From positions 1-48,501 of the forward strand of contig PXOU01000011.1 in the NCBI GenBank assembly GCA_003022365.1: a stretch of DNA of 48,501 nt. Direction: 5' to 3'. The stretch's first letter is position 1. Each line of letters starts with the position of its first letter. The notes under the pieces were generated by a model that worked only from the letters and a program-made list of their open reading frames with translations, was not told where the DNA came from and ran no database searches. Origin of the DNA: Candidatus Saccharibacteria bacterium QS_5_54_17 (GTDB lineage: Bacteria > Patescibacteriota > Saccharimonadia > QS-5-54-17). Both the position numbers and the translations under genes were made by a program. Shown here in pieces: positions 4,462-28,632 of this stretch.

Positions 4462-4989
4462 ATGTCCGATACGGCAACGCTATTCCAAAATGCGGAAACT
4501 ACTGTCGAAGAAGTAGTAGTGATGCTCTCTCATGCCCAGCAAGTTACGCACTCGCAGCGAACCACTTACTACCGTTCAGCCCTTTTTCTCAGCGCCTCCA
4601 TTACTGAAGCTATTTTGTATGAACTAATTCGACGACATTTGGATAATAATCCCGAATTGTGCAACGTAAAAACCAGTACCAAATACAAGAAAATCCATAC
4701 GCTCCCCCGGGTAGTGAGGAGCGATAAACAATTAGTAGTTTGCGAAAAAGAAACACATCCCTTTAGGCTTGGTGGGCAAACAGGTTTTAAGGAGATGAAT
4801 GAATTCGCGTTAAAGGCCGAACTTATTACGCGTTCTATATTCAACAGACTGGAAAATGTACGGAAGCGGAGAAATGAGATACACCTTCATGCCTTAAGTA
4901 GCAGTAGACGTAGCTTCAGGAAATATGACATAGAAAAAACTGCTAATGTGACCCACTTACTAGTCAGGCGATTGCTTAACGATTTCTAG
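4462..4989 (+). CDS. HEPN-like domain protein (putative RNase toxin)
   Basis: All-helical appearance; ASITEAIL (conserved E) and RRNEIH (Rx4H) motifs. Confidence 0.65.
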   Translation: MSDTATLFQNAETTVEEVVVMLSHAQQVTHSQRTTYYRSALFLSASITEAILYELIRRHLDNNPELCNVKTSTKYKKIHTLPRVVRSDKQLVVCEKETHPFRLGGQTGFKEMNEFALKAELITRSIFNRLENVRKRRNEIHLHALSSSRRSFRKYDIEKTANVTHLLVRRLLNDF

Positions 4990-5063
4990 CGGACGGATAT
5001 ACAGACGTTCTAAAAATCGAGAAAGATATTTGGGGTAGTAAAATCCGGCACCGGGGGCAAAAA

Positions 5064-5174
5064 TGAAAAACGCCCCTCTGAGGGAGGGACGTTCCCGGAT
5101 GTGATACCCCAACAGTTATGGAGATATAAACTGTTGGACATTTTTATAATAGCAAATTACAAAAGTATTTTCAA
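5064..5174 (-). ncRNA. Candidate small RNA cassette 2 (promoter, hairpin, terminator)
   Basis: Minus strand TTGAAA-17-TATTAT with extended TG; 9-bp stem CCAACAGTT/AACTGTTGG; GC hairpin followed by a U run. Confidence 0.55.
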
Positions 5175-5448
5175 GACTACGTGTCAATGCTAATTCATGT
5201 ATTAATCTGCCGGCATCGCCTCATCCGTCTCGGTTAGGATTTTGGTGATTTTTTAGCAAGGGTTAGCGTTTGGCCGTGGCCAACTCGGTGCTATTGCGGG
5301 CAGCCTCCCGCGCCCGGTCCCAAAAATCGGTCCGTCCGGCTTGGCGGCCATAGAGGCGGAAGGCGAATACCCTGTGGGGAGCGTTTTTTGCTTCATAATG
5401 CTATGGATGTTAGGTTAACTGCTAAGTATCTAATTGTGGAGTGTGAAA

Positions 5449-8400
5449 ATGTTTGATCAATTTACCAACATATATTCACTTGATAAAACACTGCGTTTCA
5501 AACTAAATCCGGTTGGAAACACGCCAGATCTACTCGAGCAGAACCAAGTACTGAAAAAAGACCAAACCATTGAAAACAGCTACCAGCAAGCCAAACCGTA
5601 CCTTGACGAATTGCATCGCAGACTTATCAATGAAGCGCTTACTCCGGAAAACTTGCGAAACTTCCCGTTCAATGAATATGCAGCAGCGTATGAGTATATA
5701 AAAGAAATCAATCGCAACCGTTACTCCGCAAATAACAAAAAAGAAACCGCTGCTTCCAATGAATGGGAGAGCAAGAAAAGCGACTTCAGGAAAGCTGTTG
5801 TGGACATGCTCAACCAGCAAGCGGATCATTGGAAACAAAAGTACCAAGACTTAGAATTCAACAAAGGCGAATTAGAAAGGAAAGGTACTAATTTCTTAAC
5901 TTCTCCCGCCATAAACAAAATCCTCAAAACCGAGTTCCCGCCAGAAAAAGAGCAAGAATTAGTTGATAAGGGGTTCCCTTCACTGCATGTAGACGAAGAA
6001 GAGAATTCTGGTGAAAAACGCTACATTTTTGAAAGCTTTGACAAATTTGCTACTTATTTATCGCGTTTTCAGCAAACCAGGCAAAATCTGTATACCAGTG
6101 AAGATAAGGCTACAGCTATAGCAACACGGGTTGTTGCTAATTTTACTACTTTCATGCAGAACATCCATGAATTTCGAGACAAGCACTCATCGATAGAAGA
6201 TGAGTTGAATTTAAGCCAGGATGAAAAACGTATATTTGAACCGGTATCTTATCGGCATTACGTGTTGCAAGCGGATATTGAGGAGTACAACGCGGTAATC
6301 GGCGACATCAACAAGCGCATGAAAGAATTGCGCGATCAAAAACATAAAAACCCTAACTACAAAAAAACTGACTACCCTCTCCTGAGTACACTCGACAAAC
6401 AAATACTCGGGCTTCAAGAAAAGGAGCACCAACTCATTGAGGACGATGAAGACGTTTGGCCGTGTGTTGAAGAACTTTTAAACATTTCGGAACAACATTT
6501 CCCGGCCCTTCAGAAGTCAGTCAACGCACTTTCGGAAACGTTTTTTGAACCAGAATTACCCAACATTTACCTCAAAGACAAGAACGTTAACACTATTTCT
6601 AACCGCTGGTTTGTGAATGGAGACGATTTCTTGATCAGATTGCCGCAAAAAAACAAGAAAAAAGATGAGAAAGACACTCCAAAAATTAAAACGTTCATCT
6701 CCCTTCAAGACGTACGAACGGCAATCGATGACATGGAAGGGGTGTTATTCAAGGATCGGTTTTATGAAGAAGGTGCAATTAGCCCCGACCAATCAACTTG
6801 GCAGCAATTCCTTGGCATTTTTCAACACGAACTCTCCAACGCCATGGAAGAGTACTATCAATCAGCACGGTCATTGCGTGAGGTAAAGGATGCTGATCCC
6901 GCGTTCGACAAAGAACACCATACACCTGTTATCAAAGAATTCGCGGACGCGTGTTTACGAGTTTACCGCCTACTTGACTACTTTGCGCTTACGCACAGAC
7001 AGTCAAGCCAAATTCCCGATGTGTTCAGTACGGAGTTTTATGAGGAGTTCGATGCTCATTTTTATGAAGTGAATGTGCCGCGATATTATAACGCCCTCCG
7101 GGATTACATTGCCCAGGTGTTTTACGGAGAAGACAAAATCAAGCTTAATTTCGGCAAAGGAAATCTTTTAGGAGGATGGTCGGAGAGTCGTCGCAACGGC
7201 GCTCAATACTGCGGGTATATATTACGACGGCCCCAAACCAACACATACTACCTTGCCATCACGGATAATCCCTGGATTTTGGACACCGAAAAACATTCCG
7301 AGATTAAAGACACCAGCAACGGTATGTATGAAAAAATGGAGTACTCACAGCTTAAGGCACAAACTATTTACGGCCCCAGCTACGAGGGCGAGTTCGGTGT
7401 TAGTTATGATACTGATAAACAAAATTCAACCAACCAGAAGATCATTGAACGTGTTAAACGTCTACTACAGAAAAATTTTGTTGAGCAATATCCAGAACTC
7501 CAGACCATAATAGACAGGGAATACTCTGACGCTGATGCGTTAGCAAGGGAGGTTTCGAACCAAAATCTCTACAGAATCAGTTTCGTCCCTGTTAGCGCGG
7601 AATATATTGAGCAGGGAAGATATGAAGCTAAAAGAGGTGGATATAATCACTTATATATTTTCGAGATCACCAATAAAGATTTGGCCAAGCCCCACTCCGG
7701 GGGCAATCCCAACCTACACACCAGTTACTTCCTCCATTTATTCAGTCAAGAAAACTTATCCAATCCAGTATTAAAACTAAGCGGCAATGCCGAAATATTT
7801 TTCCGTCCCGGAAACCACGATTTACCCACTAAAACCGACTCGCTTGGTAAGCAGGTCACTACGCATAAACGCTACAGCAAAGATACATTGCTGTTCCATC
7901 TACCCGTAAGTATCAATTTTAAAAAAGGAAGCATGAAACCTAAACAGTTTAACGACATAACGAATCAAAAAATCGCTGATCAACCAAAAGACAACCTAAA
8001 TATTATCGGCATAGACAGAGGTGAAAAACACCTTGTTTATTATTCGGTGGTTGATTGTCATGGTCGGATCCTGGATCAGGGCAGCCTGAATGAAATCAAC
8101 GGGATCGACTATCATCGGCTTTTGGACGAACGGGAGAAAGAAAGGATTAAAAACCGCCAGTCTTGGGAACCGATCGAAGACATCAAGAACCTCAAAAAAG
8201 GGTACATCTCACACGTCGTGCACGCCTTATCCCGGCTCGCCGTGGAGCATAATGCCATCATCGTGATGGAAGATTTGAACATGCGGTTCAAGCAGATTCG
8301 GGGCGGAATAGAGAAAGGTACCTATCAACGCTTGGAACGGCAACTTATAGATAAACTGAATTATTTGGTTTTTAAGGACCGTGACGCGCGTGAAACGGGT

Positions 8401-9282
8401 GGTATACTTCGGGGGTATCAACTAACGGCGCCCTTTGAATCTTTCGAAAAGATGGGCAAGCAAACCGGCACTATTTTTTATACCGAAGCCGGGTATACAT
8501 CGGTTACTGACCCGTTGACCGGTTTTAGAAAAAACATATACCTCAAAAACTCCGATACCGTAGAAAATTTGAAGCAAGCCATCAACACGTTCCACACCAT
8601 AGAGTGGGACGAACAACGGGAAAGCTATTACTTCCGATACGATGTCGCCGACTTCAGCAAAAGCAAAGACACTCCTTCCCGAATATGGGAGGTATATGCC
8701 AACGTGCCGCGCATCATTCGCAAGAAAGTGGATGAACGCTGGACAGCCGCACCTGTTAATCCCAATGATTTACTTGCTGAACTTCTTCAAACGTATGACT
8801 TTGAAAACCCCTATGGGGACGTTCTGGAGCAGATTAGAATCAAGGAAGAAGCCGGAGAACTCAAAGGTGAACGTGAGTTCGACGGGGAACAACGTAACTT
8901 TTATAAATCGCTTGTATATATCTTTAACCTGATTCTGCAACTCAGGAACTCCATGAGTCATAAATACCGGGTAGAAAATGACTCGGTAATTACTGAAGGC
9001 GAAGATCTAGATTTCATCGCGTCGCCGGTGCCGCCGTTCTTTACCACCGAAAGTTCTTACTCTACGGCCAATTTCGGCGGATTCGAGCAGCGTTTTATCG
9101 GTAACCCCCAAGCCAGGGAAAAGTTCATGGAAGAATTCAACGGCGATGCCAATGGTGCCTATAACATCGCCCGCAAAGGAGTCCTGCTTCTCGACAGAGT
9201 CCGGGAAAACCCATCTAACCCCGATATTTTCATAACCAACCAAGAGTGGGATCGGGCGGCAACTGAATGGGATACATCGTAA
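5449..9282 (+). CDS. cas12a: Type V-A CRISPR effector Cas12a (Cpf1)
   Basis: N-terminal FTNIYSLDKTLRFKL, KIKLNF, RuvC-I IIGIDRGEKHL, RuvC-II IVMEDLN, RuvC-III DANGAYNIARKG; about 1277 aa. Confidence 0.98.
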   Translation: MFDQFTNIYSLDKTLRFKLNPVGNTPDLLEQNQVLKKDQTIENSYQQAKPYLDELHRRLINEALTPENLRNFPFNEYAAAYEYIKEINRNRYSANNKKETAASNEWESKKSDFRKAVVDMLNQQADHWKQKYQDLEFNKGELERKGTNFLTSPAINKILKTEFPPEKEQELVDKGFPSLHVDEEENSGEKRYIFESFDKFATYLSRFQQTRQNLYTSEDKATAIATRVVANFTTFMQNIHEFRDKHSSIEDELNLSQDEKRIFEPVSYRHYVLQADIEEYNAVIGDINKRMKELRDQKHKNPNYKKTDYPLLSTLDKQILGLQEKEHQLIEDDEDVWPCVEELLNISEQHFPALQKSVNALSETFFEPELPNIYLKDKNVNTISNRWFVNGDDFLIRLPQKNKKKDEKDTPKIKTFISLQDVRTAIDDMEGVLFKDRFYEEGAISPDQSTWQQFLGIFQHELSNAMEEYYQSARSLREVKDADPAFDKEHHTPVIKEFADACLRVYRLLDYFALTHRQSSQIPDVFSTEFYEEFDAHFYEVNVPRYYNALRDYIAQVFYGEDKIKLNFGKGNLLGGWSESRRNGAQYCGYILRRPQTNTYYLAITDNPWILDTEKHSEIKDTSNGMYEKMEYSQLKAQTIYGPSYEGEFGVSYDTDKQNSTNQKIIERVKRLLQKNFVEQYPELQTIIDREYSDADALAREVSNQNLYRISFVPVSAEYIEQGRYEAKRGGYNHLYIFEITNKDLAKPHSGGNPNLHTSYFLHLFSQENLSNPVLKLSGNAEIFFRPGNHDLPTKTDSLGKQVTTHKRYSKDTLLFHLPVSINFKKGSMKPKQFNDITNQKIADQPKDNLNIIGIDRGEKHLVYYSVVDCHGRILDQGSLNEINGIDYHRLLDEREKERIKNRQSWEPIEDIKNLKKGYISHVVHALSRLAVEHNAIIVMEDLNMRFKQIRGGIEKGTYQRLERQLIDKLNYLVFKDRDARETGGILRGYQLTAPFESFEKMGKQTGTIFYTEAGYTSVTDPLTGFRKNIYLKNSDTVENLKQAINTFHTIEWDEQRESYYFRYDVADFSKSKDTPSRIWEVYANVPRIIRKKVDERWTAAPVNPNDLLAELLQTYDFENPYGDVLEQIRIKEEAGELKGEREFDGEQRNFYKSLVYIFNLILQLRNSMSHKYRVENDSVITEGEDLDFIASPVPPFFTTESSYSTANFGGFEQRFIGNPQAREKFMEEFNGDANGAYNIARKGVLLLDRVRENPSNPDIFITNQEWDRAATEWDTS

Positions 9283-9308
9283 ACCAAAAAATATGTATCA
9301 CGAGCACC

Positions 9309-9851
9309 ATGGAACAGTATATCCAGATTTCAACTATCAATGACTTTCTCTTCTCACCGCGTTCTCTATATCTGCACAGTGTCTACGCGAGCTTTAACAC
9401 CAAAACCTATCACGCCTCCTCTCAAATCGCGGGTGACATCAATCATTCCACTCTAGAAAACGCTAACTATTCCTCGTCTACTCGTTACTTGCAGGGGGTG
9501 CCGGTATACAGCGAACACTACGGGATCATGGGTAAGATCGACATCTACGATCGCCATACCAAGTCGCTCATCGAACGTAAAACCAAAATCAAAACCATCC
9601 ATACCGGATACAAGTACCAATTATATGCCCAGTACTTCGGGCTCACTGAGGCCGGGTATGAGGTCGAGCGACTACTCCTGCATTCTTTGGACGACAACAG
9701 AAGGTACGAAGTTCCATTACCCGATCAAGCCGAAGTATCGGCATTCGAGCAAACCCTCCGGGCTATCTGGGAATATGACATCGCCGAACACGATCCTGCC
9801 CATTCCGATGATCGATGTGAGATGAGCATCTATAAGGATCTATCGTACTAA
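9309..9851 (+). CDS. cas4: Type V-A Cas4 (Fe-S cysteines largely replaced)
   Basis: ISTINDF, GKIDIY, ERK and QLYAQY motifs; lies between cas12a and cas1. Confidence 0.93.
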   Translation: MEQYIQISTINDFLFSPRSLYLHSVYASFNTKTYHASSQIAGDINHSTLENANYSSSTRYLQGVPVYSEHYGIMGKIDIYDRHTKSLIERKTKIKTIHTGYKYQLYAQYFGLTEAGYEVERLLLHSLDDNRRYEVPLPDQAEVSAFEQTLRAIWEYDIAEHDPAHSDDRCEMSIYKDLSY

Positions 9852-9854
9852 GTC

Positions 9855-10817
9855 ATGATTTCGTTACCGGACTTTAGAGAAAAACAACTACTGCTAATCC
9901 AAGCCCAGTGGCGTGATAAACCCAAGCTGAAATTCACCAATGAAAACATCGTGTTTACCAAACATGATGAGATTGTCAATCGGGCGTCCTGTCACAAAGT
10001 ATTCGCCATATACGTAATAGGCGACATATCCGTAACCACCAAGCTGATCAGAGAAACGGCAGGTTACGGAATATCCCTCTACTTCCTAAAGCACAACTTC
10101 GAAACGTACTCCAGCTGTCTTCCTCAAGCAGAAGGTCATTATTACTTACGCTCCAAGCAATATACTATGAGTCAGGATCAACAACTCGCCATAGCCAAGA
10201 ATATCGTCCGCGGTAAACTGATAAATCAACAAAGACTTTTAAAAGAAACAGGCATCGAACCCAAAAGCAAGCAATCTATTCACCGCCAAGTTGACGCGAC
10301 TCGTAGTTTTAAGGATTTGCTCGGTGTAGAAGGTAGCCATACCCGGAGCTTTTTTGCTGCCTATTTTAACCCTATAGACTGGCGAAGGCGCGCCCCGAGA
10401 ACCAAAGAGGACATCCCAAACTTTTTATTGGATATCGGATATAACTTGCTATTTAATTTCATCGACGCACTGTTGCGCATGCACGGATTCGATACCTACA
10501 AAGGATGTTATCATCGTTTATTCTTCGGCAGGAAATCACTCGCCTGTGATATACAAGAGCCGTTCCGGTGCTTGGTGGATAAACAACTTGTCAAAGCGTA
10601 TAACCTGGGGCAAATTGATGAATCGGATTTTTCTTTCAAAAACGGCCAGTACATGTTGTCATTCGACAAGAACCAGAAGTATGCTCAGATTTTCATGCGA
10701 TTACTTATGGACAATAAGGAAGACATCTTCAACTACGTCCATGAATTTTATCGACACGTTATGAACCCCGAGGAGAATCCGTTTCCAGAATACAAGGTGA
10801 GGGCAAGAAATCAATGA
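9855..10817 (+). CDS. cas1: Type V-A Cas1
   Basis: LLGVEG, NFLLDIGY, GFDTYKGCYH and LACDIQEPFR motifs. Confidence 0.96.
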   Translation: MISLPDFREKQLLLIQAQWRDKPKLKFTNENIVFTKHDEIVNRASCHKVFAIYVIGDISVTTKLIRETAGYGISLYFLKHNFETYSSCLPQAEGHYYLRSKQYTMSQDQQLAIAKNIVRGKLINQQRLLKETGIEPKSKQSIHRQVDATRSFKDLLGVEGSHTRSFFAAYFNPIDWRRRAPRTKEDIPNFLLDIGYNLLFNFIDALLRMHGFDTYKGCYHRLFFGRKSLACDIQEPFRCLVDKQLVKAYNLGQIDESDFSFKNGQYMLSFDKNQKYAQIFMRLLMDNKEDIFNYVHEFYRHVMNPEENPFPEYKVRARNQ

Positions 10818-11095
10818 TTATTATTGCTTACGACTTTAGTAGCAACAAAACTAGGGCGCAGTTCGCTAAGTTTCTTAAGAAATACGGGCGCAAGATCCAG
10901 TATTCAGTGTACGAAGTCAACAACAGTCCGCGTGTTTTACAAAACATCATGACCGAGATAGAATTAAAGTATAAGAAGCGCTTCAAAGGTTCGGATAGTA
11001 TTTTGATTTTTCAGCTCTGCAAAGGCGACGAAGCGAAAGTCAAACGGTATGGCTATGCGAGCAATGAAGAGCAAGACATTGTAATCTTCGAGTAG
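10814..11095 (+). CDS. cas2: Cas2
   Basis: MIIIAYDF..LKKYGRKIQYSVYE; overlaps the cas1 stop. Confidence 0.96.
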   Translation: MIIIAYDFSSNKTRAQFAKFLKKYGRKIQYSVYEVNNSPRVLQNIMTEIELKYKKRFKGSDSILIFQLCKGDEAKVKRYGYASNEEQDIVIFE

Positions 11096-11128
11096 TGCTT
11101 CGCACATTGATAATTTCATTTCGAAGTA

Positions 11129-11158
11129 GAAGTAGAAATTGTCGTGTAGGAGATTAGA
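11129..11158 (+). other. Anti-repeat (reverse complement of the CRISPR repeat) in the leader
   Basis: GAAGTAGAAATTGtcgTGTAGGagATTAGA versus repeat reverse complement GAAGTAGAAATTGgaTGTAGGtATTAGA. Confidence 0.8.
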
Positions 11159-11209
11159 TATGCAGGAAGCAGCAAACCCTGGTCTTAATATTTTAAGTCC
11201 GATTGATAA

Positions 11210-11280
11210 TGGCTTCACCAAGCAAAAAGTGAGACAAGCATTTATATGCGTCTTAGCATCTTTTTGGCTTGGTGAAGCCA
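11210..11280. promoter_or_regulatory. Long leader hairpin immediately before the first repeat
   Basis: Perfect 14-bp inverted repeat TGGCTTCACCAAGC/GCTTGGTGAAGCCA, extended by AAAAAG/CTTTTT. Confidence 0.8.
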
Positions 11281-11288
11281 AGTTTGCT

Positions 11289-11882
11289 GTCTAATACCTA
11301 CATCCAATTTCTACTTCGGTAGATCTCTGCCGGGATGGGTACATTCTCGAATGTCTAATACCTACATCCAATTTCTACTTCGGTAGATTATCATCCTTAG
11401 GCACCCTTACAGTAGTGTCTAATACCTACATCCAATTTCTACTTCGGTAGATGCGGGGCGGGCGAAGACGTTCATAGGTCTAATACCTACATCCAATTTC
11501 TACTTCGGTAGATACTTTGCGCCTTGGCGAGCGTGCGGGGTCTAATACCTACATCCAATTTCTACTTCGGTAGATTACTTCGGTGGATACCTACGTCGAT
11601 GTCTAATACCTACATCCAATTTCTACTTCGGTAGATGATTGTATTTTTACCTCGCCTCCTCGTCTAATACCTACATCCAATTTCTACTTCGGTAGATTAT
11701 GACACATCCGGCACTGACGGGGTGTCTAATACCTACATCCAATTTCTACTTCGGTAGATAGGTCAAAGAGGTTGCGGCTTTCATCCGGAGTCTAATACCT
11801 ACATCCAATTTCTACTTCGGTAGATAGGCGGATTTGGCTTTTATTTGTCTAATACCTATATCCAATTTCTACTTCGGTAGAT
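11289..11882 (+). CRISPR. Type V-A CRISPR array, 10 repeats and 9 spacers
   Basis: 36-nt repeat GTCTAATACCTACATCCAATTTCTACTTCGGTAGAT at 11289, 11353, 11417, 11478, 11540, 11601, 11662, 11724, 11790 and 11847 (last has one C>T); spacers 28, 28, 25, 26, 25, 25, 26, 30 and 21 nt; Cas12a handle AATTTCTAC-TTCG-GTAGAT. Confidence 0.99.
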
Positions 11883-11984
11883 TTTACTCAGGACCTCGAC
11901 AAATTGTAGCATAGGCAAATTGTTACTTGCTCGATCAAACGGTAAAATGCCGAAAGGTTTCGATTCAGGGATAAAGAATAATTT

Positions 11985-13007
11985 ATGAAAAAAGACTTAC
12001 CATACCAATCACTGCACACCCATACCGTTGATTCGGATGGGGAGGCTACGCACCAGCAGGTGCTGGAGGTGGCGGAGGCTAACGGATTCGGCGCCGTAGC
12101 GTTTACCGACCACGATACCGTGCTCAGTGACGAACGGCTGCGGCAATTACGTGAATATAACGGGCCGGTGGATTGGATCAGCGGCGTAGAGCTTTCCAGC
12201 GGGTTGCCCAAGGAGCAAGGCGGCGGCGCCACCAACAGCCTGCATGTCGTGGGGTTGTTCGTCGATCCGACCAATCAGGATCTGCGCCAGCATTGCCGCA
12301 AGACCCATGAGGCCCGCCAGAAACGGATGAAAGCGGTGGTAGCCAATCTGAATGAGCTCGGCCTCACCATTACCGAGGATGACTGCCTGGAAGCCGCCGG
12401 TGGGGGAAGCGTGGGACGTCCCCACATCGTGGAAGCCATTCATAAACACCAAACCAACCAACGGGTATTGGATGAACTGGAAGCCCGGGTGGCGGAGGAT
12501 GCCAAGCAAGATGAGCAGGCCAAGCAATGGTACGACCGCTACCAGCAAATCATCCGGGAAAGGCCGAGCCAGCGGCCGTTCGAACTGTTCCTCGGCAATG
12601 ATCCCTATTTCCCGGCCTTGGTTGACTTTGAATACTGGCAGGACTTTGACTCGGTAGTAAGTTTGATACGCGGCGCCGGCGGCATTGCCTTGTGGGCGCA
12701 CTGGTGGACAATAGTCAAAGAAGTGGACCGCGGCGGGCTTGCGGACATCGCCGAAGCAGGCCGGATTGATGGCTTAGAAACCAGCTTTCCGCTGGTCAGA
12801 GACGCCATGGACACCCGGGAGGAGACGCTGCAAGAAGTCGCGAAAACCTGCGAGGTTCCTGGCGTGACGGCCGTCGATTTGCATGCACTCCAAACCTTCG
12901 CCGATCTGGCCGCTCAATCCGAAGACGCGGCAACTACCACCGGCACGGTCCAACGCCTGATAGATGCCACCGGCGTGAGCACCGAGTGGAGTAGTCTAAA
13001 TCAATAG
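11985..13007 (+). CDS. PHP-domain phosphoesterase (TrpH/YciV-like)
   Basis: LHTHTVDSDG, FTDHDT, SGVELS, GRPHI, AH and DLH motifs. Confidence 0.92.
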   Translation: MKKDLPYQSLHTHTVDSDGEATHQQVLEVAEANGFGAVAFTDHDTVLSDERLRQLREYNGPVDWISGVELSSGLPKEQGGGATNSLHVVGLFVDPTNQDLRQHCRKTHEARQKRMKAVVANLNELGLTITEDDCLEAAGGGSVGRPHIVEAIHKHQTNQRVLDELEARVAEDAKQDEQAKQWYDRYQQIIRERPSQRPFELFLGNDPYFPALVDFEYWQDFDSVVSLIRGAGGIALWAHWWTIVKEVDRGGLADIAEAGRIDGLETSFPLVRDAMDTREETLQEVAKTCEVPGVTAVDLHALQTFADLAAQSEDAATTTGTVQRLIDATGVSTEWSSLNQ

Positions 13008-13276: not shown

Positions 13277-13337
13277 AGTTTATCCACAAGGTATGAAATT
13301 CTAATGCCTCCTACGGATAAACTCCGTGTTATCATCA

Positions 13338-13638
13338 GGATGATCCCGCCACCCAATTTCCAATTCGGTAGATTTGGCCTCCTTTCTTATGATTGCTTTC
13401 TACCTAGGTAAATTTGGTAGTGGACGGGACCGGGGAAAGTCTAATACCTATTCCAGTTTCTACTTGGGGTAAATTTCCGCATGTGCCATCGAACTGAGTA
13501 TGACAGCTAAGTGAATATATGAGATAATATTCAAAGCATCCGGATGGTACATCATTTGGTTCTGCCTCCTTTTTGTTGCCATGCCGGATGCTTCAAGTCT
13601 GATATCTACATCCAGTTTTGCTCGATGCAGATGTAGAT
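13338..13638 (+). CRISPR. Degenerate CRISPR-repeat cluster (orphan mini-array)
   Basis: Repeat-like copies: CCAATTTCCAATTCGGTAGAT (13353-13373), TTTCTACCTAGGTAAAT (13397-13413), GTCTAATACCTATTCCAGTTTCTACTTGGGGTAAAT (13439-13474), GTCTGATATCTACATCCAGTTTTGCTCGATGCAGAT (13597-13632). Confidence 0.8.
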
Positions 13639-13699
13639 GTGTTGTAATTTTTGCCTGACAGGATGTATTGTTGAGCAAACAACGATTGCCTGAGTGGGA

Positions 13700-13922
13700 G
13701 TCAGTAGACGGTAGACGGTAGACTGGGAACAAGGAAGAGGAAGAGGAAGCAGGAAGAGCAAGTAAGCGGAAATAAAAGCGTGTTATTCCTGCCCCCTCCG
13801 TCATTCCGAACTTGTTTCGGAATCCAATTTTGGAATAGATCCTGAAATAAATTCAGGATGACAACTTCAGGATGACATTTTCGTCATTTCGAGGACGTGT
13901 CATCGACAAGACCGGGGAACGT
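13700..13922. repeat. Heptamer tandem repeats plus REP-like cluster
   Basis: agtagac/ggtagac heptads, then GTCATTCCGAA and CAGGATGAC units. Confidence 0.85.
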
Positions 13923-28356: not shown

Positions 28357-28632
28357 TTATTCCTGATAAGACACCCAATTTCTTCTTCTTTTTTGTGCTG
28401 ACCTCTGCTCGAATTTTGCTATGATTTTTCCGACCTGTTCTTCGTCAAGGTCTATTCCTTTTTCCAATTGCCGTTTCAGGGCATGTAAACCGTCTTCTTG
28501 GTCGACACTGCCTACGTAGGCGAGTGCGATCAGATAATCCTCATGTATATCGGCCGGGGTTTCAATTTCTGGTATTATCGCGGCTTCGTGGTTAGGCGGT
28601 GGTCCGAGTTCGGACTGAAATTGCTCATGCAT
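28357..28632 (-). CDS. Hypothetical protein
   Basis: RBS AAGGAG before ATG 28632. Confidence 0.6.
   Translation of the reverse strand: MHEQFQSELGPPPNHEAAIIPEIETPADIHEDYLIALAYVGSVDQEDGLHALKRQLEKGIDLDEEQVGKIIAKFEQRSAQKRRRNWVSYQE

Follow-up and report, generated by a model that had tools for sequence, protein, structure and literature searches.

Mimics of the type V-A CRISPR repeat (CRISPR: short palindromic repeats that are clustered and regularly interspaced) are carried by phages and plasmids (PMC10651486; bioRxiv 10.1101/2024.10.29.618823), and RacrVA1-3, which belong to this kind, inhibit a V-A system (PMC10651486). CracrVA1, whose promoter target is the cas12a promoter, relies on ten consecutive matches next to a TTTA protospacer-adjacent motif (PAM); in an electrophoretic mobility shift assay its shift of promoter DNA comes close to that of a full guide, and it represses without cleavage (bioRxiv 10.1101/2024.10.29.618823). 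CreR likewise binds and represses without cutting, with MbCas12a (bioRxiv 10.1101/2023.03.10.532045), and stand-alone repeat-like sequences occur in ~49-56% of V-A loci (PMC10120712). In the present work we analysed a stretch of 48,501 nt from Candidatus Saccharibacteria bacterium QS_5_54_17 (contig PXOU01000011.1, positions 1 to 48,501; hereafter the window), which carries a V-A array whose fifth spacer opens with a near-copy of the end of its own repeat, in exactly the register set by the PAM inside that repeat.

A near-copy of the repeat tail opens spacer 5

The array and the parts of it that concern spacer 5 are as follows.

11289-11882, + strand: type V-A array of ten repeats (36 nt) and nine spacers
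11540-11575, + strand: repeat 5, source of the 5' handle of CRISPR RNA (crRNA) 5; its nt 20-23 are TTTC
11576-11588, + strand: spacer 5 nt 1-13, identical to repeat nt 24-36 at 12/13 positions, the exception being A>G at position 10
11587-11600, + strand: spacer 5 nt 12-25, resembling repeat nt 6-19

This is the single array in the host genome. Its repeats 1-9 are identical, repeat 10 differs from them by one C>T in the 5' part, and at its 3' end the repeat carries the handle typical of V-A systems, whose stem has 5 bp and whose loop is TTCG. The repeat contains a single TTTV, the TTTC at nt 20-23 of the + strand, and none on the - strand. The nine spacers measure, in order, 28, 28, 25, 26, 25, 25, 26, 30 and 21 nt. 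Spacer 5 (11576-11600) is flanked by perfect repeats 5 and 6, and its 25 nt represent the commonest spacer length in the array (3/9; range 21-30). Four younger spacers lie on its leader side; therefore, the array continued to grow after spacer 5 had arrived.

The tail copy begins at spacer nt 1, which corresponds to the base directly after the TTTC of the repeat. Alignment bears out what the first-pass annotation of this DNA had reported from the letters alone: a tail match of 12/13 whose sole difference is of the wobble type, a start right after TTTC in every repeat (10/10, at the only TTTV present), and an extension of the match by two nt at repeat 4, where it reaches 14/15. The G that replaces A at position 10 would form an rG-dT wobble on the target strand, and it leaves the handle stem pairable, again through a wobble (by eye). 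A kin V-A array (L072, G184:C1) has the same 3'-stem A>G (GTGGAT for GTAGAT) in its terminal repeat.

Chance likeness of this first half was ruled out on three grounds: firstly, a match of at least 12/13 at a fixed register has a probability of 40/4^13, or ~6e-7 (arithmetic); secondly, just 24 of 100000 shuffled versions of spacer 5 reach its local score against the repeat; thirdly, that score is 21 for spacer 5 and at most 14 for each of the other eight spacers. Outside the array, 25-mers of the window reach 21 only at further repeat relics and at a single weak site near 28360.

The first-pass annotation had also held that the rest of the spacer resembles the 5' part of the repeat. This it does, at 10/11 for nt 12-22 against repeat nt 6-16 and at 9/12 for nt 14-25 against nt 8-19, though 688 of 40000 random genome 12-mers (~1.7%) reach 9/12 at some repeat register; we regard the likeness of the second half as no more than suggestive. 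The whole spacer can be read as the repeat tail joined to the repeat 5' part minus its first seven letters (21/25 letters), the two halves sharing an overlapping dinucleotide AT (by eye). Because the repeat has an internal near-duplication, which part the second half copies is ambiguous, and it is tail-like as well (7/8, by eye).

A complete V-A locus and a proposed capture from repeat-bearing DNA

Upstream of the array lie the effector gene and the adaptation genes.

5434-9282, + strand: cas12a, 1282 aa (NCBIfam TIGR04330, 620.9 bits against a cut-off of 300)
9267-9851, + strand: cas4, type V (TIGR04328, 188.5 bits against a cut-off of 70)
9855-10817, + strand: cas1, type V (TIGR04329, 319.9 bits against a cut-off of 300)
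10814-11095, + strand: cas2 (TIGR01573, 48.6 bits against a cut-off of 24.5)

The locus forms a complete CRISPR-Cas system of type V-A, with an effector, an adaptation module, 36-nt repeats that end in a 3' handle, and the array downstream of cas2 on the same strand. The cas12a product aligns to solved Cas12a chains at E values down to 1.6e-125, with an IGIDRGE stretch inside the alignment.

From the observed anatomy, register and statistics of spacer 5 we infer both the route by which it came and the kind of DNA that supplied it. The account towards which we lean, by somewhat more than an even chance, is PAM-guided capture from repeat-bearing DNA, after which spacer 5 would have been left an orphan whose partial matches to its own array do no harm. 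The locus's own Cas4-Cas1-Cas2 would have inserted it, and the source would have been DNA bearing this repeat family, not an ordinary phage gene: the TTTC within the handle part of every V-A repeat would define a PAM-flanked protospacer that starts with the 13-nt tail, and spacer 5 would consist of 13 nt of slightly diverged tail and 12 nt of whatever came next. Because those last 12 nt resemble the repeat 5' part, the source was probably a pair of diverged repeat copies almost back to back, and because an ordinary array never juxtaposes a repeat tail and a repeat head, it would need to have been tandem or decayed. Candidate sources are a tandem repeat mimic on a phage or plasmid (of Racr or Cracr type) or a decayed array; an ordinary related array would be a possible source if the likeness of the second half is due to chance.

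Two features of spacer 5 argue for capture: its length is a normal 25 nt, where a 13-nt in-place duplication would have added 13 nt, and its tail copy starts exactly in the PAM register, after the lone TTTV of the repeat. V-A adaptation with Cas4 enriches for TTTV, a preference for which Cas4 is required (PMC9419969); V-A integration follows a ruler (PMC13034035). Further points in favour of capture are the existence, on mobile elements, of repeat-bearing DNA outside arrays (see below) and the A>G itself, a change that leaves the stem pairable and is met in a kin repeat.

The surroundings of the array hold further repeat-like DNA.

11121-11158, - strand: inverted, degenerate repeat-like relic in the cas2-array interval (local alignment to the repeat, score 32)
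11985-13007: gene of the PHP family (phosphoesterase-like; profile match), between the active and the decayed array
13300-13840, + strand: decayed second array, with relics at 13355-13373, 13397-13413 (tail only), 13439-13474, 13597-13632 and 13822-13840

The inverted relic carries a 6-nt tandem duplication in its tail part and, being without an intact stem, probably makes no working handle. The decayed array comprises at least five repeat relics at irregular spacing. It was tried as the source of spacer 5 and rejected, as its relics match the spacer only at letters shared with the repeat (by eye). The leader is taken up by a putative 44-codon open reading frame (ORF; 11161-11295, + strand), which has a Shine-Dalgarno-like AGGAG upstream and ends on a TAA inside repeat 1 (by eye), and a terminator-like hairpin (11263-11282) stands immediately before repeat 1.

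The host genome (816 kb in 21 contigs, 90% complete) is bacterial and of the small-genome candidate phyla radiation (CPR) kind, with genes for a CPR-type pilin, MurT and a bacterial ThrS. Cas12a above the cut-off was found in 14 of 401 genomes sampled across the phylum, and the kin V-A arrays of the phylum have repeats other than that of the spacer 5 array, whose tail is carried by 0/100 relatives. A survey of 401 genomes from another family returned 62 handles, in just 12 genomes.

Handle-plus-tail units and repeat mimics on phages and plasmids

We scanned IMG/VR in two ways: for V-A handles that run straight into another copy of their tail, equality of the loops not being required, and, more widely, for a second GTAGAT 2-12 nt after a handle. 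The first scan brought up L106 and L107, whose copies are exact (13/13). The wider scan returned seven loci, which comprise three 13-nt copies in the PAM register (L106, L107, L117), a 12-nt copy (L119), an 8-nt copy (L118), a doubtful 9-nt copy (L116) and one locus that is not a copy (L115). These loci, together with other mimics discussed here, are listed below.

L106, IMGVR_UViG_3300006840_000103, 5025-5056, - strand: handle and its own 13-nt tail, 13/13
L107, IMGVR_UViG_3300025030_000715, 4627-4658, - strand: handle and its own 13-nt tail, 13/13
L117, IMGVR_UViG_3300037400_003964, 1762-1793, - strand: handle and its own 13-nt tail, 12/13
L119, IMGVR_UViG_3300025135_000018, 5034-5064 and 11040-11125: paralogous loci on one phage contig
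L118, IMGVR_UViG_2731957642_000002, 848-874, - strand: solitary full-length repeat-like unit and an exact 8-nt copy of its end
L116, IMGVR_UViG_3300045988_159908, 1295-1883: V-A array of ten repeats on a contig classed as viral
L014, IMGVR_UViG_648276715_000004, 433-451, + strand: solitary handle, identical at 19/19 to that of the 11289-11882 array
L111, Capybara microvirus Cap1_SP_161, MK496734.1, 601-619: handle, ~20 nt and a strong terminator
L110, Moraxella bovis plasmid NZ_CP087786.1, 1501-1531: degenerate handle and a 13-nt tail-like copy, weak (E 0.2)

In L106, L107 and L117 the register of the tail copy is set by the TTTC of the handle, and these units share the design of repeat 5 plus spacer 5. 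A full handle followed by TACT occurs at three distinct loci, two of which continue with all nine remaining letters of the tail. A control scan for copies that start one to several bases earlier returned three loci, none of them a copy. Portal and terminase genes mark L106 as a fragment of a tailed phage, and L107 carries a replication module that includes a DnaB-like helicase and a Sak4-like protein; in both, the unit is co-oriented with the flanking ORFs. Two strong hairpins (z -3.3) directly follow the tail copy of L106, and because they abut it, the guide of L106 is essentially the tail alone. Guides directed at V-A repeats are one possible reading of these phage units, and remnants of tandem mimics are another. 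We take L106, L107 and L117 as indirect support for the idea that a guide of this design can be of some use.

The two loci of L119 differ in form: one is a handle with a 12-nt tail copy, and the other consists of two truncated repeat mimics 6 nt apart. The 12-nt copy equals the tail of another mimic on the same contig, which suggests the route through a tandem-mimic remnant, and the near-spacerless tandem is a natural example of the tail-next-to-head arrangement that the source of spacer 5 would require. In L116, one spacer opens with an 8/9 copy of the last 9 nt of the repeat, a likeness that chance could produce.

The L014 handle lies in an intergenic, AT-rich stretch, with ~30 nt and then a terminator hairpin after it, an architecture like that of Cracr and Racr units, and the L111 unit lies between annotated genes of a 5-kb microvirus. 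Handle-like matches were also seen in unannotated DNA of Leptospira LE1-type phages and of Methanosarcina virus MetMV. BLAST of the L106, L107 and L117 units against cultured phages, and of L106 against plasmids, returned handles only, bar the one weak plasmid site L110, which lies antisense to the genes in a 63-nt gap between a type IV secretion system coupling-protein gene and virB11. A search for viral relatives of this Cas12a found none, its four pattern matches being unconfirmed.

What crRNA 5 could do at its own array

All ten repeats offer crRNA 5 a TTTC followed by nine contiguous matches and 12/13 overall, and the best of these partial targets is at repeat 4.

11497-11515, + strand: best partial target of crRNA 5, the TTTC of repeat 4 followed by 14/15 matches that extend 2 nt into spacer 4

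As read from the sequence, it is the array's template strand that pairs with the crRNA. For AsCas12a, cleavage needs 17 matched nt, stable binding by dAsCas12a needs as many, and 11, 13 or 15 matched nt lead to a short dwell (PMC6050341). Because the longest PAM-proximal run of crRNA 5 is 9 nt, and its best site is 14/15 with a mismatch at position 10, against the 17 nt that AsCas12a requires, cutting is not expected; at most, a brief docking of Cas12a might follow. The first-pass annotation had treated it as established that Cas12a binds without cutting when pairing is limited to a short PAM-proximal stretch. CracrVA1, with 10 nt, agrees with this claim and dAsCas12a, with 17 nt, does not; with published thresholds in such disagreement (17 nt versus 10 nt), binding of crRNA 5 to the repeats is a physical possibility. 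Folding in silico of three repeat-spacer-repeat units gave, in all of them, pairing of repeat with repeat.

We also considered whether the second half of spacer 5 might be a viral-type guide to a host promoter. This found no support: it has 0 TTTV-flanked matches in the genome at up to 2 mismatches, as compared to 0.93 per shuffle.

Weighing capture against its rivals

A number of results weigh against capture, foremost the searches for a source. The host genome holds no second site for spacer 5 at up to 6 mismatches; the spacer itself being the only such site in 816 kb, an autoimmune full or near-full self-target was rejected. IMG/VR viral contigs gave 0 matches to its first 19 nt, BLAST of phage and plasmid records returned E values of 0.6 or above only, and metagenome contigs gave a single match of 19/25, without a PAM and inside a gyrase-like ORF (by eye), which we take as chance. 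Among 185,579 species genomes, the TTTC plus the tail of spacer 5 occurs 44 times, once per locus, and at none of these 44 sites does it stand in an array or repeat-like context or continue into the second half; among 45 TTTC-plus-tail sites that were checked, no truncated mimics in tandem and with a G-variant tail came to light, and upstream likeness to the second half peaked at 7/12. No array with a G-variant tail was found in the collections searched, and none of the V-A mimics L014, L111, L106, L107, L117 and L119 matches spacer 5 in full. The remaining points on this side are of other kinds: the second-half likeness would arise by chance at ~1.7%; no read or contig that spans the array was found in public runs; and the kin arrays and shorter phage copies, taken up below, speak for routes other than a PAM-guided one. 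Most spacers of uncultured small-genome bacteria are without a known match. The two outcomes between which the first-pass annotation had expected such searches to decide, a full-length match in repeat-like context and a perfect protospacer in an ordinary gene, are both absent from the viral and metagenomic data searched; its proposal of capture from a repeat-bearing element keeps the support of spacer length, perfect flanking repeats and PAM register, but is without a protospacer or a G-variant array to name as the source.

Spacer 5 might never have been acquired at all. Slippage, unequal or microhomology-mediated recombination, or a faulty integration could have duplicated part of a repeat in place, with subsequent drift supplying three A>G changes and the loss of 1 nt. 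Such events also create repeat-like pieces, as seen in kin spacers and in the 6-nt duplication of the inverted relic, and partial repeat copies abound locally (that relic at 11121-11158, the tail-only relic at 13397-13413). When 176 distinct spacers from 12 kin V-A arrays were each compared with their own repeat, units with masked letters being excluded, 0/176 had a tail copy in the PAM register (best 9/13). Repeat-like spacers did occur in non-PAM registers: spacer 22 of L103 (G458:C28) begins with a 16/19 copy of the whole handle (shuffles 49/100000, p 4.9e-4), and spacer 17 of L081 (G212:C2) contains a gapped 17/20 copy of the repeat 5' part (shuffles 397/100000, p 4e-3), which is borderline given 176 spacers tested. 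PAM-independent routes thus yield such spacers too. The phage tail copies of 8 nt (L118) and 12 nt (L119) point to slippage or deletion, and the AT shared by the two halves of spacer 5 is what a microhomology join would leave (by eye). We nevertheless consider an in-place origin unlikely, since a 13-nt duplication should add 13 nt, yet spacer 5 has the commonest length of its array; the repeats on both sides are perfect; a start exactly after the sole TTTV is predicted by no slippage model; and three of the six phage tail copies (the doubtful L116 included) fall in the 13-nt PAM register when 11 unit lengths were allowed. An assembler chimera in a repetitive array, which would make the unit between repeats 5 and 6 an artefact, is very hard to credit: no read or contig from public runs spans the array, no RNA run is listed for it, and two DNA runs (of one study) reach just its flanks (11100-11164 and 11903-11995, at ~96-97% identity and diverging either side), but a chimera of perfect repeats could not yield the variant letters of spacer 5, which reads must contain, and spacing and repeat integrity are regular. 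The 93 nt just past the array (11903-11995, into the start of the PHP gene) match contigs from these two runs at ~97% identity, and the divergence of those contigs on either side may mark a conserved or mobile short element.

A different kind of rival concerns present function and is compatible with an origin by acquisition: spacer 5 might be a selected, repeat-directed guide, whose crRNA parks Cas12a, without cutting, on every repeat tail, and so damps array transcription (a feedback on crRNA supply) or blocks integration at the first repeat. The TTTC and 12/13 match at 10/10 repeats, with the crRNA paired to the template strand, would suit this role, as would repression without cleavage by CracrVA1 with its 10 matches and by CreR, and the phage contigs L106 and L107 (13/13) and L117 (12/13), each with a handle and its own 13-nt tail in the same register. 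We hold selection for this role to be quite improbable all the same. Stable binding by dAsCas12a takes 17 nt, with 11 to 15 giving a short dwell (PMC6050341), and position 10 of the host copy is mismatched, unlike two of the three phage copies, which match throughout. The repeat occurs in 0/100 relatives, the design is met in 0/176 kin spacers, and spacer 5 sits in mid-array between perfect repeats, not in a stand-alone degenerate unit. Beneath its targets there is no promoter-like site, a scan of the leader having found none above shuffles. On balance, PAM-guided capture from repeat-bearing DNA is the account that we prefer.

Implications

Discrimination between self and non-self by means of the PAM is usually described in terms of an array that has no PAM next to its spacers. 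In V-A systems a canonical PAM lies within the repeat, 13 nt ahead of every spacer, which makes arrays as well as repeat mimics open to acquisition and to being addressed. If spacer 5 is a mere by-product of this, V-A adaptation can sample CRISPR-repeat DNA, and the outcome would be tolerated because 13 nt cannot trigger cutting. It may also be that spacer 5 represents host immunity against a phage tandem repeat mimic, exerted through a PAM that a V-A mimic cannot lose; should such spacers derive from phage repeat mimics, RNA anti-CRISPRs would have a built-in weak point against Cas12a.

A bolder and, in our judgement, doubtful possibility is that repeat-directed guides form a class of their own, a phage RNA anti-CRISPR (in L106, L107 and L117) that silences the host array or blocks uptake of new spacers, with spacer 5 as the first host case. 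If this were true, a tail-first guide would send Cas12a, without cutting, to every repeat of every array in that repeat family, and spacer 5 would be a built-in brake on crRNA supply, or else raw material for the pickup of such units by phages. Docking of Cas12a on repeats by tail-guides would open a new route by which host or phage could regulate or sabotage an array, and it would amount to a compact natural design for cleavage-free Cas12a binding.

Comparison with known systems

Precedents for a spacer whose source is CRISPR-locus DNA are self-targeting spacers and the role of the CRISPR array as a hot spot from which spacers are taken up. Classical self-targeting spacers fully match a chromosomal site; by contrast, the host genome, which is 90% complete, contains no full match to spacer 5. 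In the portion of the literature covered by our search, PMC11656645 included, neither guides nor spacers directed at CRISPR repeats are described; supplementary tables may list such guides.

The relics at 11121-11158 and 13300-13840 are of the same kind as the repeat-like sequences described earlier (PMC10120712). Those sequences lie outside arrays, and that study found no conserved target for them, whereas spacer 5 occupies a spacer position. Racr and other solitary repeat units (RacrVA1-3; PMC10651486), carried by phages and plasmids, mimic the repeat and load Cas proteins. A V-A mimic cannot give up the handle and hence retains the TTTC, so that it would be an acquirable and targetable protospacer, of the sort that spacer 5 resembles. 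Racr units differ in that they act by sequestration, which needs no target, and the sections of that report used here mention no spacer against a Racr.

Cracr units (CracrVA1; bioRxiv 10.1101/2024.10.29.618823) share with L014, L111 and L106 an architecture in which one repeat-like handle precedes a short guide and a terminator, and as repeat-bearing phage DNA they are a potential source of spacers. The Cracrs described in the parts of that report used here aim at cas or creT promoters, whereas the guide of L106, L107 and L117 is the tail of the repeat itself. With CreR (bioRxiv 10.1101/2023.03.10.532045), spacer 5 shares a Cas12a handle and a PAM-flanked, PAM-proximal partial complementarity to host DNA, which is present at 10/10 repeats; the promoter target and the stand-alone unit that characterize CreR and Cracr have no counterpart here. 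The outcome for CreR is binding without cutting, and for spacer 5 a docking of this kind might follow by analogy. CreR is a stand-alone, degenerate unit upstream of cas12a, directed at the cas12a promoter, whereas spacer 5 lies within a regular array and has the ten repeats of that array as its targets.

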